Source: Marivivens sp. (GTDB taxonomy: Bacteria > Pseudomonadota > Alphaproteobacteria > Rhodobacterales > Rhodobacteraceae). Taken from it: 64,000 nt of DNA. The position numbers were made by a program, and so were the translations under genes. The notes beneath the pieces are model-generated. The model did no database searches and was not told the DNA's origin. It was given only the letters and a program-made list of their open reading frames with translations. Positions 26,175-36,420 of the stretch are shown here, in pieces. Within the stretch, counting starts at the first letter, position 1. The number at the start of each line of letters is the position of its first letter. The DNA lies in contig JAEPMR010000008.1 in assembly GCA_017643845.1 (NCBI GenBank), forward strand, positions 8,811-72,810. Reading direction: 5' to 3'.

Positions 26175-27455
26175 TCAGGCCTTGCGTGATTTCAAGGCGC
26201 TTTGTGGCCCGTGCGGATGATCCGCGTGCGGGTAGGGCGCATGATGATGGTGGTGGTCATGATCGTGATGATGATGGTCGTGGCTATGACCGTGATCATG
26301 GTGATGATGATGATCGTGCCCGTGATCATGACTGTGATCATGATGATGGTGGTGATGATCGGCTTGCAGGCGGCACAGGCCGGTGCAGAACGTATCACAC
26401 AGGGCGCAATCGGCAACGTTCGAGCCGGGTGCGGACGCGCCTTGGCCCTCGACGTGGTGATGGTGGCTTTCCTGTACGGCGCCGACCTCGGATTCAAAGC
26501 CCAGAACCTGCGTGCGGTATTTGCACAGAACACAGGTTGGCGGCGGCACGTCACTAAAGGCAGGGTGGCCTGCGCCCTTTTCAGCGGCGAGCGCGGCGCG
26601 CTGCTCGGGGGTGATTTCGGTAACGGTTCCGTCCTCGATGGCGAGCACCTGTGTGCGATACTGGCAGGTGCCGCAATTTGGTGGGGGGACAGCATAGGTT
26701 TGCTCGCGAACGCGCTCGGCAAAGGTTTCGAGCACTTTCGGGTGGTCGCCCAAGTAACCTGCCTTGATGAACTGCATGTGGGGGTGTTCGGCGGCGACCT
26801 GATCGGTGAATCCGTAGATGCGGTCGATCAGGATGCCGGAGAACAGGAAGTAGGGGAACACGATGGCGCGTTTGTAGCCGAGTTTTGCAACGTGCTGGAG
26901 GCATGGCTCGACAAGCGGGAAGGTCACGCCGGAATAGCCGACTTCGCACCAACCGAAGCCCATGCCTTCCTGCAACATGCGGGCGATCTTGGCGACGTTG
27001 CCGTTGGCATCGGGGTCGGATGCGCCGCGCCCGATGACCACGAGGCAGGTTTCGTGCAGGCTGACGGTGCCGTGCTTTGCGTTGGCGCGGTCAACGGCCT
27101 CCTGAATGCGGGCACCGGCGGCTGCGATCATCTTGGGGTCGACGCCGAGTTCGCGGCCATAGGAGATTTGCAGGCCGTGTTTGGCGGCGTAGGTGTTGAG
27201 CACGGTGGGGATGTCGTTTTTGGCGTGCATCGCGGCAAAGAGCATGCCCGGAACGGCGAGGATGCGCTCGCAGCCCGCTTCGCGCAGGCGGTCGAGACCA
27301 TCGCGGATCACTGGATTGGCGAATTCGAGATAGCCGTAGTCGATCTCCCACTCGTCAGGCAGGTAGGCAGGGAGCTTTTCAGCCAAAACCTTGAATTCAT
27401 CGACGGCGGACTGGCTGCGTGAGCCGTGGCCGCAAATCATCACACCGGTTTTCAT
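26175..27455 (-). CDS. cbiX: Long-form CbiX chelatase-family protein with Cys clusters and His-rich tail
   Basis: CGHGSR, YLEFANP, HAKNDIP, GRGASDPDAN, PYFLFSG, CxxC motifs, poly-His. Confidence 0.9.
   Translation of the reverse strand: MKTGVMICGHGSRSQSAVDEFKVLAEKLPAYLPDEWEIDYGYLEFANPVIRDGLDRLREAGCERILAVPGMLFAAMHAKNDIPTVLNTYAAKHGLQISYGRELGVDPKMIAAAGARIQEAVDRANAKHGTVSLHETCLVVIGRGASDPDANGNVAKIARMLQEGMGFGWCEVGYSGVTFPLVEPCLQHVAKLGYKRAIVFPYFLFSGILIDRIYGFTDQVAAEHPHMQFIKAGYLGDHPKVLETFAERVREQTYAVPPPNCGTCQYRTQVLAIEDGTVTEITPEQRAALAAEKGAGHPAFSDVPPPTCVLCKYRTQVLGFESEVGAVQESHHHHVEGQGASAPGSNVADCALCDTFCTGLCRLQADHHHHHHDHSHDHGHDHHHHHDHGHSHDHHHHDHDHHHHHAPYPHADHPHGPQSALKSRKA
26240..26360. repeat. Low-complexity His-codon repeat (CbiX tail)
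   Basis: gatgatggtggtg...gatcatggtgatgatg runs. Confidence 0.8.
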
Positions 27456-27667
27456 GCGGCGGCCTCTTCGGTGTCTTCGTCTTCGATCTCTTCCTCGGTG
27501 GACGCGTCTTTGCCCTTTAGCGCGCCGCGAATGCCGAGCAGGATGGCGAGGCCGAGTGCAATACCGGCAACCCAGTGATCATGGCCGGCGATTTCGCCAA
27601 GATGGCCGGGATGGGCGGCTGCCGTGCTGGCGAGCACGGTAAAGAAGAAAGCGAGCGCGTGGCGCAT
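27452..27667 (-). CDS. Small membrane protein: signal peptide, HPGH...HDH, TM, acidic tail (DUF6732-like)
   Basis: MRHALAFFFTVLASTAAA-HPGHLGEIAGHDHW; SD AAGGAGG; 4-bp overlap with cbiX. Confidence 0.8.
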   Translation of the reverse strand: MRHALAFFFTVLASTAAAHPGHLGEIAGHDHWVAGIALGLAILLGIRGALKGKDASTEEEIEDEDTEEAAA

Positions 27668-27805
27668 GATCGGACCTCCTTGTCGGGCAGAAACCAGAGG
27701 CCCGCGGCTGTGCGGGGTCAAGTGACGATGCAATCTTCTGGCCCCCTATTTGGGTCGACCCACCGATTACCAACCTCTCTGGCCCTTGCCGGGCTTCGTC
27801 TGTTG
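27668..27805 (-). ncRNA. Candidate structured 5' leader of the cbiX-cob operon (unassigned)
   Basis: Closing stem GGCA.GGGCCAGA...UCUGGUUU.UGCC with internal hairpins, ending just before the SD. Confidence 0.5.
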
Positions 27806-27810
27806 GCCTT

Positions 27811-27839
27811 CGTATAGGGGGCGTGTGGCTTTGGTGCAA
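27811..27839 (-). promoter_or_regulatory. Sigma70-type promoter for the cbiX-cob operon
   Basis: TTGCAC-N17-TATACG on the minus strand. Confidence 0.5.
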
Positions 27840-27971
27840 ATGGTTAAACGTCGCACGGAGAGCTGAATCCGACTTGTGCGTATGTGCGGAGGCGGCTGCG
27901 CGGTGATCCGCGTTTTCACCCGTCGGATCTTGGCTATCTCAGACCTGACAGTTTGAGAAAAGGAGCATGTG

Positions 27972-28973
27972 ATGGGACGCCTCGTCGACGGTAAATGGGA
28001 AGATGTCTGGTACGATACGAAAAAGAGCAAAGGCGCGTTTGTGCGCACTGAGGCCAAGTTTCGCAATTGGGTGACGGCTGATGGCAGTGCGGGACCGAGC
28101 GGCGAGGGTGGTTTCAAGGCTGAAAGCGGTCGTTACCACCTCTATGTGAGCCTTGCCTGTCCCTGGGCGCACAGAACCCTGATTTTCCGCAAGCTAAAGG
28201 GGCTTGAGCCGCATATCGACGTATCGGTCGTACACCCCGACATGCTGAGCGATGGATGGACATTCGATGCTGAGTTCGAGGGTGCGACAGGTGACCAGCT
28301 GCATGGCGCGGCCTTCATGCGGGATGTCTATTTGCGGGCAATGCCGGACATGAGCGGTCGCGTGACGGTTCCTGTGCTCTGGGACAAGGAGCGCGACACC
28401 ATCGTTTCGAATGAGAGTGCGGAGATTATCCGTATGTTCAATTCCGCGTTTAACGAGGTGACCGGGAATAACGATGATTACTGGCCCGAGGACATGCGCG
28501 ATGAGATCGAGGAAGTGAATGTGCGGGTGTACGACACCGTGAACAACGGGGTCTACAAAAGCGGTTTTGCGACCACGCAGGTGGCGTATGATTCGGCTGT
28601 TGTGCCGCTCTTTGAGACCCTCGACTGGCTGGAAGAACGGCTGTCGCGCCAGCGGTATCTGGCAGGGGACCGGATCACCGAGGCGGACTGGCGGCTGTTT
28701 ACGACGATGGTGCGGTTCGACGCGGTTTATCACGGGCATTTCAAGTGCAATCGCGCGCGGCTGGTGGACTATCCGAACCTCTGGGCACATACGCGCGAAC
28801 TGTATCAGTGGCCCAGCGTGCGGGAGACCGTGGATATGGCGCATATCACCCGACACTATCATTACAGCCACGAGAGCATCAATCCGCACCGGATCGTGCC
28901 AATCGGACCGCGCCCCAATTTTGATGCGCCGCATGGACGGGGGGGAAGCGCCAAGATGTCGCTTGCCGGTTAG
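27972..28973 (+). CDS. Glutathionyl-hydroquinone reductase (YqjG/ECM4, Xi-class GST)
   Basis: YHLYVSLACPWAHR, VTVPVLWD, IVSNESAEI, NNGVYK. Confidence 0.93.
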   Translation: MGRLVDGKWEDVWYDTKKSKGAFVRTEAKFRNWVTADGSAGPSGEGGFKAESGRYHLYVSLACPWAHRTLIFRKLKGLEPHIDVSVVHPDMLSDGWTFDAEFEGATGDQLHGAAFMRDVYLRAMPDMSGRVTVPVLWDKERDTIVSNESAEIIRMFNSAFNEVTGNNDDYWPEDMRDEIEEVNVRVYDTVNNGVYKSGFATTQVAYDSAVVPLFETLDWLEERLSRQRYLAGDRITEADWRLFTTMVRFDAVYHGHFKCNRARLVDYPNLWAHTRELYQWPSVRETVDMAHITRHYHYSHESINPHRIVPIGPRPNFDAPHGRGGSAKMSLAG

Positions 28974-36080: not shown

Positions 36081-36177
36081 TTATCTGCACAATGTCTCGG
36101 GTTTGTTCTCTGCCGCAAGATCAACGCGGGATGTCGGAATCAACCTTGACGGGGACAGGGATCAAGGCGCATGAAGG

Positions 36178-36374
36178 TGACGCATGGTTCCCCGATCCGA
36201 CGCAAAGCGTCCGGGGATGAAATGGGAATGTGGTGCGCGCCGATCCAGACAGGAGGCACAAGACCACAGCCGCCCCCGCGACTGTAAGCGGTGAGCGCCC
36301 GTCATTGGCCACTGGGACACCCCCGGGAAGGCGACGACGCGCTACGACCCGCGAGCCAGGAGACCAGCCTTGCG
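36178..36374 (+). ncRNA. Cobalamin (AdoCbl) riboswitch
   Basis: GGTTCCC...AATGGGAATGTGGTG...GCCCCCGCGACTGTAAG...GCCACTG...GGGAAGG...GAGCCAGGAGACC; cccgtc/gacggg hairpin next to the cbtB SD. Confidence 0.96.
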
Positions 36375-36420
36375 AGTGCAACCCAATCCCCGTCGGGTGT
36401 GACGGGACAGGAGAAAAGAC

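Follow-up and report, generated by a model that had tools for sequence, protein, structure and literature searches.

The DNA analysed here, hereafter the window, is a stretch of 64,000 nucleotides (nt) from Marivivens sp., to which all coordinates refer; 'the family' denotes the bacterial family of this organism, the Rhodobacteraceae. A GST-like gene (27969+) and a divergently oriented vitamin B12 biosynthesis operon are separated by a 300-nt spacer, in which lies a leader containing a three-way-junction, aptamer-like RNA of 77 nt (27724–27800; covariance model R1, 81.9 bits, E 1.6e-19, the E-values of our custom covariance models being rough). Leader and operon are on the minus strand, as are all features described below unless stated otherwise. 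The first regulated gene encodes a DUF6732 protein of 71 amino acids (27452–27667; Pfam PF20506, E 7.4e-27), the stop codon of which overlaps the cbiX start codon (ATGA). Long-form CbiX, a 426-residue member of the sirohydrochlorin cobaltochelatase family (26175–27455; Pfam CbiX 1e-48), is followed by cobH (CbiC 2.5e-69), cobL, cobI and a cbiG-cobJ fusion (Pfam TP_methylase, CbiG_N/C). A preliminary description, made from the letters of the window, had assigned the leader to a cbiX-cobHLIJM operon; the operon is the right one, with the amendment that its first gene is that for DUF6732 (27667–27452) and that cbiX, joined to it by the ATGA overlap, is second.

The promoter proposed in that description, TTGCAC-N17-TATACG, is present on the minus strand and has comparative support. 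Its −35 box (TTGCAC, 27834–27839) has a TTGC.. counterpart in 44 of 50 orthologous leaders; its −10 box (TATACG, 27811–27816) lies 17 nt from the −35 box and ends 10 nt before the fold. Across the orthologous leaders the arrangement TTGC..-N16-18-TATA(C/G/A)N recurs (44/50), ending 5–11 nt (mostly 7–8) ahead of helix P1 of the RNA. A consensus promoter scan missed the promoter in the window leader, a scan that is too strict in view of the comparative matches. The predicted transcription start (~27804) lies a few bases ahead of P1, which, with the ATG at 27667, gives a leader of ~135 nt, as had been predicted. The conserved promoter spacing therefore places the 77-nt RNA at the extreme 5′ end of the mRNA. 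Contigs assembled from metatranscriptome libraries end at 27795 and 27791; contigs cannot show start, strand or level, and these ends are a weak hint compatible with the RNA lying at the 5′ end of the transcript. One such contig (27612–27795) matches the window without a mismatch and takes in nothing beyond the leader and the initial 55 nt of the DUF6732 gene; the same run gave no coverage of cbiX, though contigs cannot show abundance. The leader RNA may accumulate alone, at which this contig only hints. Upstream of the −35 box (27844–27873), most orthologous leaders carry two GTCGC(A/G)AT-like words ~21 nt apart, the copies in the window being GTCGGATT and GCGACGTTTAA. This direct repeat is a candidate transcription-factor site, and the operon may be controlled at the promoter level too.

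Conserved fold of the 77-nt RNA

The RNA is closed by P1 (GACGA/UCGUC; 27800–27796 with 27728–27724), which is supported by covariation, with the variants AACGA/UCGUU, GACGG/CCGUC and GAGAG/CUCUC. A single unpaired base separates P1 from the P2 hairpin (GCCC-GGCAA-GGGC, 27782–27794), which has a stem that is kept across copies (double changes in two of four pairs) and a loop that varies from 2 to 11 nt. The strand connecting P2 and P3, J2/3 (CAGAGAGGUUG, 27771–27781), is 11 nt long, near-invariant and the most conserved unpaired segment of the RNA; it mimics a Shine-Dalgarno (SD) sequence and is the partner of an anti-SD element located further downstream. It leads into the P3 arm (27730–27770), which comprises P3 itself (27770–27765 with 27735–27730), an internal loop, P3a (GGUC/GGCC in the window, GGUY with RRCC in the family), a GA bulge, and P3b (CCC/GGG, with a 5-nt loop). 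The sequence of P3 is variable, and compensatory changes are found in six of six P3 pairs and in seven of eight P3a/P3b pairs. A single unpaired purine precedes the 3′ strand of P1.

The preliminary description had called for a covariation check on orthologous leaders, and this bears out a conserved RNA. In an alignment of 70 distinct sequences, which was fitted to the model and includes 17 lower-scoring family matches and three divergent copies from CbiX genomes, 92.7% of cells are paired, vs 33–49% when the 3′ partners are slid by 1–3 columns. Double-sided (compensatory) changes occur at 19 of the 23 pairs, and none of 500 shuffles reaches any of the observed measures. An alignment that was not fitted to the model (A1) agrees, with 93.1% of cells paired and at most 48% in the controls, and RNAalifold applied to a MAFFT alignment returns the same fold as the manual structure. 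The minimum free energy of the window leader, taken as a single sequence, is no better than that of shuffles (z = −0.34), and the conserved fold is not recovered; the fold is supported by comparison, not by thermodynamics.

Several pairings suggested earlier do not survive the comparison. The inner hairpins GGGUCGACCC and GAU-UGC-AUC have no covariation support, their bases falling in P3a/P3b, P3 and P1. The same applies to the proposed helix GGGGCCAG/UUGACCCC, the bases of which are engaged in the covarying P1, P3, P3a and P3b helices instead. An alternative hairpin pairing GGUUGG of J2/3 with YGACC was also considered and dropped, the pairing being lost in divergent members.

Distribution and relation to the cobalamin riboswitch

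Searched at the DNA level, related genomes gave matches in five other genera, limited to ~27800–27720, which suggested a conserved non-coding core. A scan for exact patterns, with each species represented by one genome, returned 120 loci, mostly due to chance, among which were 20 more true copies, bringing the total to 26; the covariance model R1 was built from these 26 readily aligned cores. R1 was applied to samples representing 151 genera of the family and 150 other families of the class. It finds a single copy in the window's own genome, exactly one copy in 48 of the 151 family genera, and one weak match among the 150 other families. The named carriers, all roseobacters, are Yoonia, Loktanella, Marivivens, Aliiroseovarius, Marinosulfonomonas, Pacificibacter and Thalassobium.

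The gene context is uniform. In all 50 copies examined the RNA precedes [DUF6732]-CbiX-CobH, with DUF6732 present in 41 and absent in nine. Long CbiX is encoded by 55 of the 151 family genomes; the RNA accompanies it in 47 at E up to 1e-3, and five of the eight others hold divergent copies that are found when the search is run with filters off. No cobalamin riboswitch was found ahead of CbiX in genomes without the RNA (9 + 20 loci). Copies outside the family likewise stand ahead of CbiX (L191–L193, L206 and L158). Of 25 out-of-family CbiX loci, models of the R1/R2 type, trained on one family, pick up only four, which belong to two other families; L158 (G254), a member of yet another family, is not one of the 25.

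DUF6732 is single-copy in the family and almost always stands between the leader RNA and cbiX. By reading, the protein begins like a signal peptide and further has a His-rich HPGH..GHDHW motif, a single hydrophobic helix and an acidic tail; its position and the His-rich motif suggest a role in cobalt handling, and no mention of it was found in the searchable literature. In one genome (G175; locus L169, G175:C51:118600-124000) DUF6732 is kept beside the GST-like gene, with aminotransferase and deformylase genes downstream; there are no cob genes at this locus, and neither a CbiX match nor a leader RNA is detectable. In many genomes long CbiX matches as two stretches (residues 2–270 and about 302–425), so the segment joining the chelatase part to the Cys/His-rich C-terminal part must vary in both length and sequence.

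The window also holds a canonical cobalamin riboswitch, ahead of cbtA (36168–36386, plus strand; Rfam), in which both the B12 box and the GCCACUG loop are present. By reading, the B12 box or J6/3 strand (AGCCAGGAGACCUGCC type) and the GCCACUG loop are absent from 27668–27800; the preliminary description had made the same contrast between the two leaders, and had recognised no riboswitch class in the cbiX leader. An Rfam search agrees: at the Rfam 15 gathering threshold the leader matches no family, and at E up to 10 the interval 27400–28100 gives nothing from the cobalamin clan CL00101. No cobalamin-clan match was obtained in 20 orthologous loci at E up to 0.1, nor in 20 small loci, including out-of-family copies, at E up to 10. 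The permissive matches that did appear (for example a fragment of a human long non-coding RNA and a microRNA) were rejected as chance.

Direct comparison with the family's own riboswitches nevertheless indicates that the two RNAs are not unrelated: J2/3 and the P3 arm match the J3/4 strand and extended P4 of the canonical elements. In an unfiltered R1 search of 30 loci with canonical cobalamin riboswitches from the family, the best match (17.9 bits, E 0.013) fell inside the canonical riboswitch of G015, and several local matches to the arm fell in the same place. A sub-model of 50 positions covering J2/3 and the long arm (R2) aligns end-to-end (50/50 positions) with UGAAAUGGGAA-P4-insert-P4′ of the window's own riboswitch at 18.3 bits, and with the same part of the riboswitches of three other genomes at 12.6, 12.4 and 10.4 bits. 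Each match is marginal alone (E 0.013–4.5), and their weight comes from the common position. J2/3 is thereby aligned with UGAAAUGGGAA (J3/4) of canonical cobalamin riboswitches. Many canonical riboswitches of the family bear an extra hairpin within the P4 loop, in some cases with a tip that reads GACCC or GAUCC-5 nt-GGG(G)/GGAG; the insert in the 36168–36386 riboswitch, GCCGAUCC-AGACA-GGAGGC, resembles the tip of the leader RNA arm. The out-of-family CbiX copies read GAUAG..GCCC-loop-GGGCUGAAACGAUUUCGGUG..arm..CCCGAACUGUC, and are nearer, by eye, to the canonical UGAAAUGGGAAUGCGGUG..ACUGUAA. A further likeness, between the hairpin CCCCGC-ACAGCC-GCGG downstream of the RNA and the canonical CCCCCGC-ACUGUAA-GCGG, was dropped as not conserved in other leaders.

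The RNA is best seen as the first hairpin, J3/4 and extended P4 of an alphaproteobacterial cobalamin riboswitch, apparently re-closed by a new P1. Like RF00174 and its clan, it is a 5′ leader of B12 biosynthesis genes, with a first hairpin that leads into a purine-rich strand (UGAAAUGGGAA in the canonical form, CCAGAGAGGUU in the leader RNA), a helix with an inserted hairpin and a GACCC/GAUCC-5 nt-GGG(G)/GGAG tip, and pairing of the purine-rich strand with a distal CCU-containing strand, as in canonical P3. The differences are substantial. The leader RNA lacks P5, P6 and its extensions, the B12 box/J6/3, the GCCACUG loop, the outer P1/P2 and the kissing loop; it is a three-way junction with its own 5-bp P1 following the P4-like arm, whereas the canonical form is a P3-P4-P5-P6 four-way junction; it is 72–83 nt in length vs about 190–230 nt; and it occurs as one copy per genome in one gene context. 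In solved structures the B12 pocket is made by J6/3 with the B12 box, P5, P6 and the L5-L13 kissing loop.

Sister genera offer a second line of comparison. Where family genomes lack the RNA, cobH has a full cobalamin riboswitch ~6 kb upstream, on its own strand (four of the four genomes in which cobH was found), and the operon riboswitch-DUF1636-cobW-cobN-cobG-cobH was confirmed in two of these (L250 G029:C5 and L251 G008:C8). The gene set DUF1636-cobW-cobN-cobG-cobH is that of the late cobalt-insertion route; genomes with and without the RNA therefore differ both in chelatase type and in the leader RNA. As a cobalamin riboswitch heads the equivalent sister operon, the new RNA takes the position that a B12 sensor has in sister genera. 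Canonical cobalamin riboswitches number mostly one (0–2) in RNA-bearing genomes vs 1–6 in those without (31 genomes, uncorrected for kinship), and the sole canonical riboswitch of the window's genome is that ahead of cbtA.

Expression platform

The stretch from P1 to the start codon, mostly 45–95 nt long, consists of a hairpin of variable sequence followed directly by a pyrimidine-rich element (CCUCUGG, CCUCUCUG or GUCCUUUCUG). In the window this linker hairpin is CCCGC-ACAGCC-GCGGG (27701–27716), which had been noticed previously and has counterparts of different sequence in relatives; it abuts, with no spacer, the anti-SD CCUCUGGUUU (27691–27700). A scan flagged a terminator at 27716–27701, which we rejected, as orthologues keep a hairpin of different sequence that is followed by CCUCUGG and not by a U tract. 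Together with the preceding GGG, the anti-SD can pair either with GGGCCAGAG, made up of J2/3 and the P2 3′ strand, or with the SD, GGAGGUCC; the SD region as a whole is AAGGAGGUCC (27672–27681) and contains AAGGAGG.

Both pairings are maintained across lineages by sequences that change in concert. On the ribosome-binding side, GGGCCUCU pairs with GGAGGUCC in the window, and elsewhere CCUCUC pairs with GAGAGG and UCCUUUC with GAAAGGA, the SD type (GGAGG, GAGAGGA or GAAAGGA) shifting together with the anti-SD type. On the junction side, CUCUGG pairs with CCAGAG and CCUCUCUG with CAGAGAGG; when J2/3 has CGGA instead of CAGA its partner often has UCCG instead of UCUG, and when it has GAAAGG the partner has CCUUUY. 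Counts for individual columns of the J2/3 : anti-SD pairing are A-U 32, G-C 5 and G-U 2 in one, and G-C 27, A-U 8 and G-U 4 in another. Duplexes of J2/3 with the leader have a mean energy of −16.2 kcal/mol vs −12.6 kcal/mol for shuffled sequences, and duplexes of the leader with the SD −16.2 vs −13.5 kcal/mol; in neither case does any of 100 shuffles reach the observed mean. The best J2/3-pairing and the best SD-pairing sites overlap in 47 of 50 leaders.

These comparisons indicate that the long-range complementarity is an alternative or pseudoknot pairing, real and under selection, and the two covarying, competing pairings indicate a translational switch. The helix GGGCCAGAG/CUCUGGUUU of the preliminary description does exist, exceeds shuffled controls and covaries; what fails is its assignment as the closing helix, since P1, P2 and P3 covary. 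Its more general proposal, of a cis-regulatory RNA, is upheld by an RNA that is conserved and covarying and that has a platform acting on the SD, with SD pairing beyond that of shuffles. The leader shares the features generally expected of riboswitches, namely a covarying structured domain in a 5′ leader and a platform with mutually exclusive pairings at the SD. By position, the J2/3 : anti-SD helix takes the place of canonical P3.

The two states were compared with a nearest-neighbour model. In window-type leaders the J2/3 : anti-SD pairing uses the P2 3′ strand as well, and in every leader it crosses P1. Forcing the junction to form with J2/3 unpaired lowers the probability that the SD is unpaired from 0.56 to 0.25 in the window, and on average from 0.39 to 0.33, with 20 sequences going down and nine going up relative to the P1-open state. 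Holding the P1 5′ strand unpaired costs most sequences nothing, their best fold under this constraint being as good as the unconstrained optimum. This modelling mildly favours an assignment in which the ligand-bound, junction-locked state is the translation OFF state.

A close parallel for such a platform is offered by translational riboswitches with SD, anti-SD and anti-anti-SD elements, such as the E. coli thiM thiamine pyrophosphate riboswitch. There, as here, part of the aptamer core and the SD compete for one anti-SD strand. The aptamer fold and ligand of thiM are unrelated, and here the competing segment is an SD-mimicking junction strand.

Mechanism, ligand and alternative readings

We propose that the 77-nt RNA, at the 5′ end of the DUF6732-cbiX-cobHLIJ mRNA, would control translation through the junction strand, the anti-SD and the SD. 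When free, the SD-mimicking junction strand CAGAGAGG would hold the anti-SD, leaving the ribosome site open; locking of the junction, for which a bound ligand is the likeliest cause, would release the anti-SD and close the ribosome site. The overlapping stop and start codons would relay the effect to cbiX and beyond. By this route the RNA probably acts as an on/off control on translation of the operon in marine roseobacters. We infer that the locking factor is a small ligand, for which a corrinoid (B12 or a late intermediate) is our best guess because of both the ancestry of the RNA and the position of the operon; such a ligand would give end-product repression. Taken whole, the proposal of a truncated cobalamin riboswitch derivative that acts as a translational switch, is OFF when the junction is locked and most plausibly binds a corrinoid seems to us about evenly poised between right and wrong.

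Several observations weigh against it. The parts that hold B12 in the canonical riboswitch are missing from the RNA, and the likeness to the canonical arm, resting on individually marginal covariance model matches (E 0.013–4.5), lies below Rfam detection. The OFF direction comes from a pseudoknot-free nearest-neighbour model in which the effect is modest and, the sequences being related, the p-value of 0.006 is overstated. In some leaders the anti-SD pairs with J2/3 only and P2 stays intact, which makes a pseudoknotted, ligand-stabilised ON state possible. Finally, the RNA never stands ahead of other B12 genes and coexists with a canonical cobalamin riboswitch for cbtA in the same genome, which argues for a different signal. 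Tentatively, and with less confidence than an even chance would imply, the truncated descendant may form a riboswitch class of its own, which would sense not coenzyme B12 but something else, such as Co2+ or an early intermediate with cobalt in the corrin ring, and gate the cobalt-insertion branch in roseobacters and other Alphaproteobacteria.

The opposite polarity, an ON switch for a feed-forward signal (for example Co2+, or what CbiX consumes or makes, sirohydrochlorin or cobalt-sirohydrochlorin), would have a ligand-stabilised J2/3 : anti-SD pseudoknot stacked on the linker hairpin, so that the SD is open only when cobalt or a precursor is present. The direct adjoining of linker hairpin and anti-SD would suit such stacking, the J2/3 : anti-SD helix covaries and, being canonical P3 by position, would be part of the folded aptamer, and a size of ~75 nt is typical of ion sensors. 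The strict association with cobalt-insertion genes (those for the His-rich DUF6732 and CbiX), never with other B12 genes, also points this way, and with a canonical B12 sensor already on the cobalt transporter cbtA a second, different signal would be parsimonious. However, the window-type anti-SD pairs also with the P2 3′ strand and crosses P1, and so competes with covarying helices; the modelling favours OFF; neither the NiCo model nor any other ion-sensing family of Rfam is matched; and in sister genera the equivalent operon is under the control of B12 rather than cobalt. We regard an ON switch as unlikely. Distinctly unlikely, in our judgement, is a docking site for a protein, either an autoregulator encoded in the operon or another RNA-binding regulator, the binding of which would lock the junction and free the anti-SD in the manner of ribosomal-protein leaders. 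One copy per genome, a single gene context and the missing B12 pocket would fit such a site, and a cut-down riboswitch arm could persist as a protein-recognised scaffold; yet no candidate RNA-binding domain is seen in the operon proteins, the RNA persists without DUF6732 in nine of 50 loci, and a long, near-invariant junction strand in a multi-helix junction is more typical of small-molecule sensors. That the RNA resembles only the front part of a canonical riboswitch and falls below every Rfam threshold might suggest a decaying, non-functional remnant. This is very improbable: the RNA is conserved in at least 70 genomes with compensatory changes across its helices, including the new P1, its promoter position is conserved and its expression platform covaries, and in G175, which has no cob genes at the locus and no CbiX match, it is the RNA that is undetectable and DUF6732 that is kept. 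It is because of the covariation that a dead relic is excluded.

Among known cobalt-linked RNAs, the NiCo (czcD) riboswitch (RF02683) is a four-way junction, found mainly in Firmicutes, that acts by antitermination. It resembles the present RNA in being a cis-acting, cobalt-linked leader of similar size, and its model gave no match in the leader, in 20 orthologous loci or in the 20 small loci. NiCo is the only cobalt-responsive riboswitch discussed in a review of cobalt and B12, and it controls a metal exporter (PMC7689651), whereas the leader RNA here precedes a B12 synthesis operon. The cbiX-leader motif is not described in that review, nor in two Breaker-laboratory surveys (PMC8632094, PMC11109978). 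No description of the leader RNA was found in the searchable literature, and it corresponds to no Rfam 15 family. What is new, to judge from these comparisons, is a truncated variant of the cobalamin-riboswitch kind that belongs to no Rfam family.

If its proposed ancestry is correct, the RNA represents a natural experiment in riboswitch evolution, in which half of an aptamer was kept, re-closed and wired to a new platform. Either outcome would be informative, be it corrinoid sensing with a much smaller pocket, or a changed ligand or partner. In about a third of the sampled genera of the family, the operon for cobalt insertion and ring synthesis is led by an RNA that is invisible to genome annotation, and a covariance model for it would improve annotation of the B12 regulon. 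For marine algae, roseobacters are a major source of vitamin B12, and seawater contains little cobalt; how these bacteria control the costly corrin pathway is accordingly of ecological interest.

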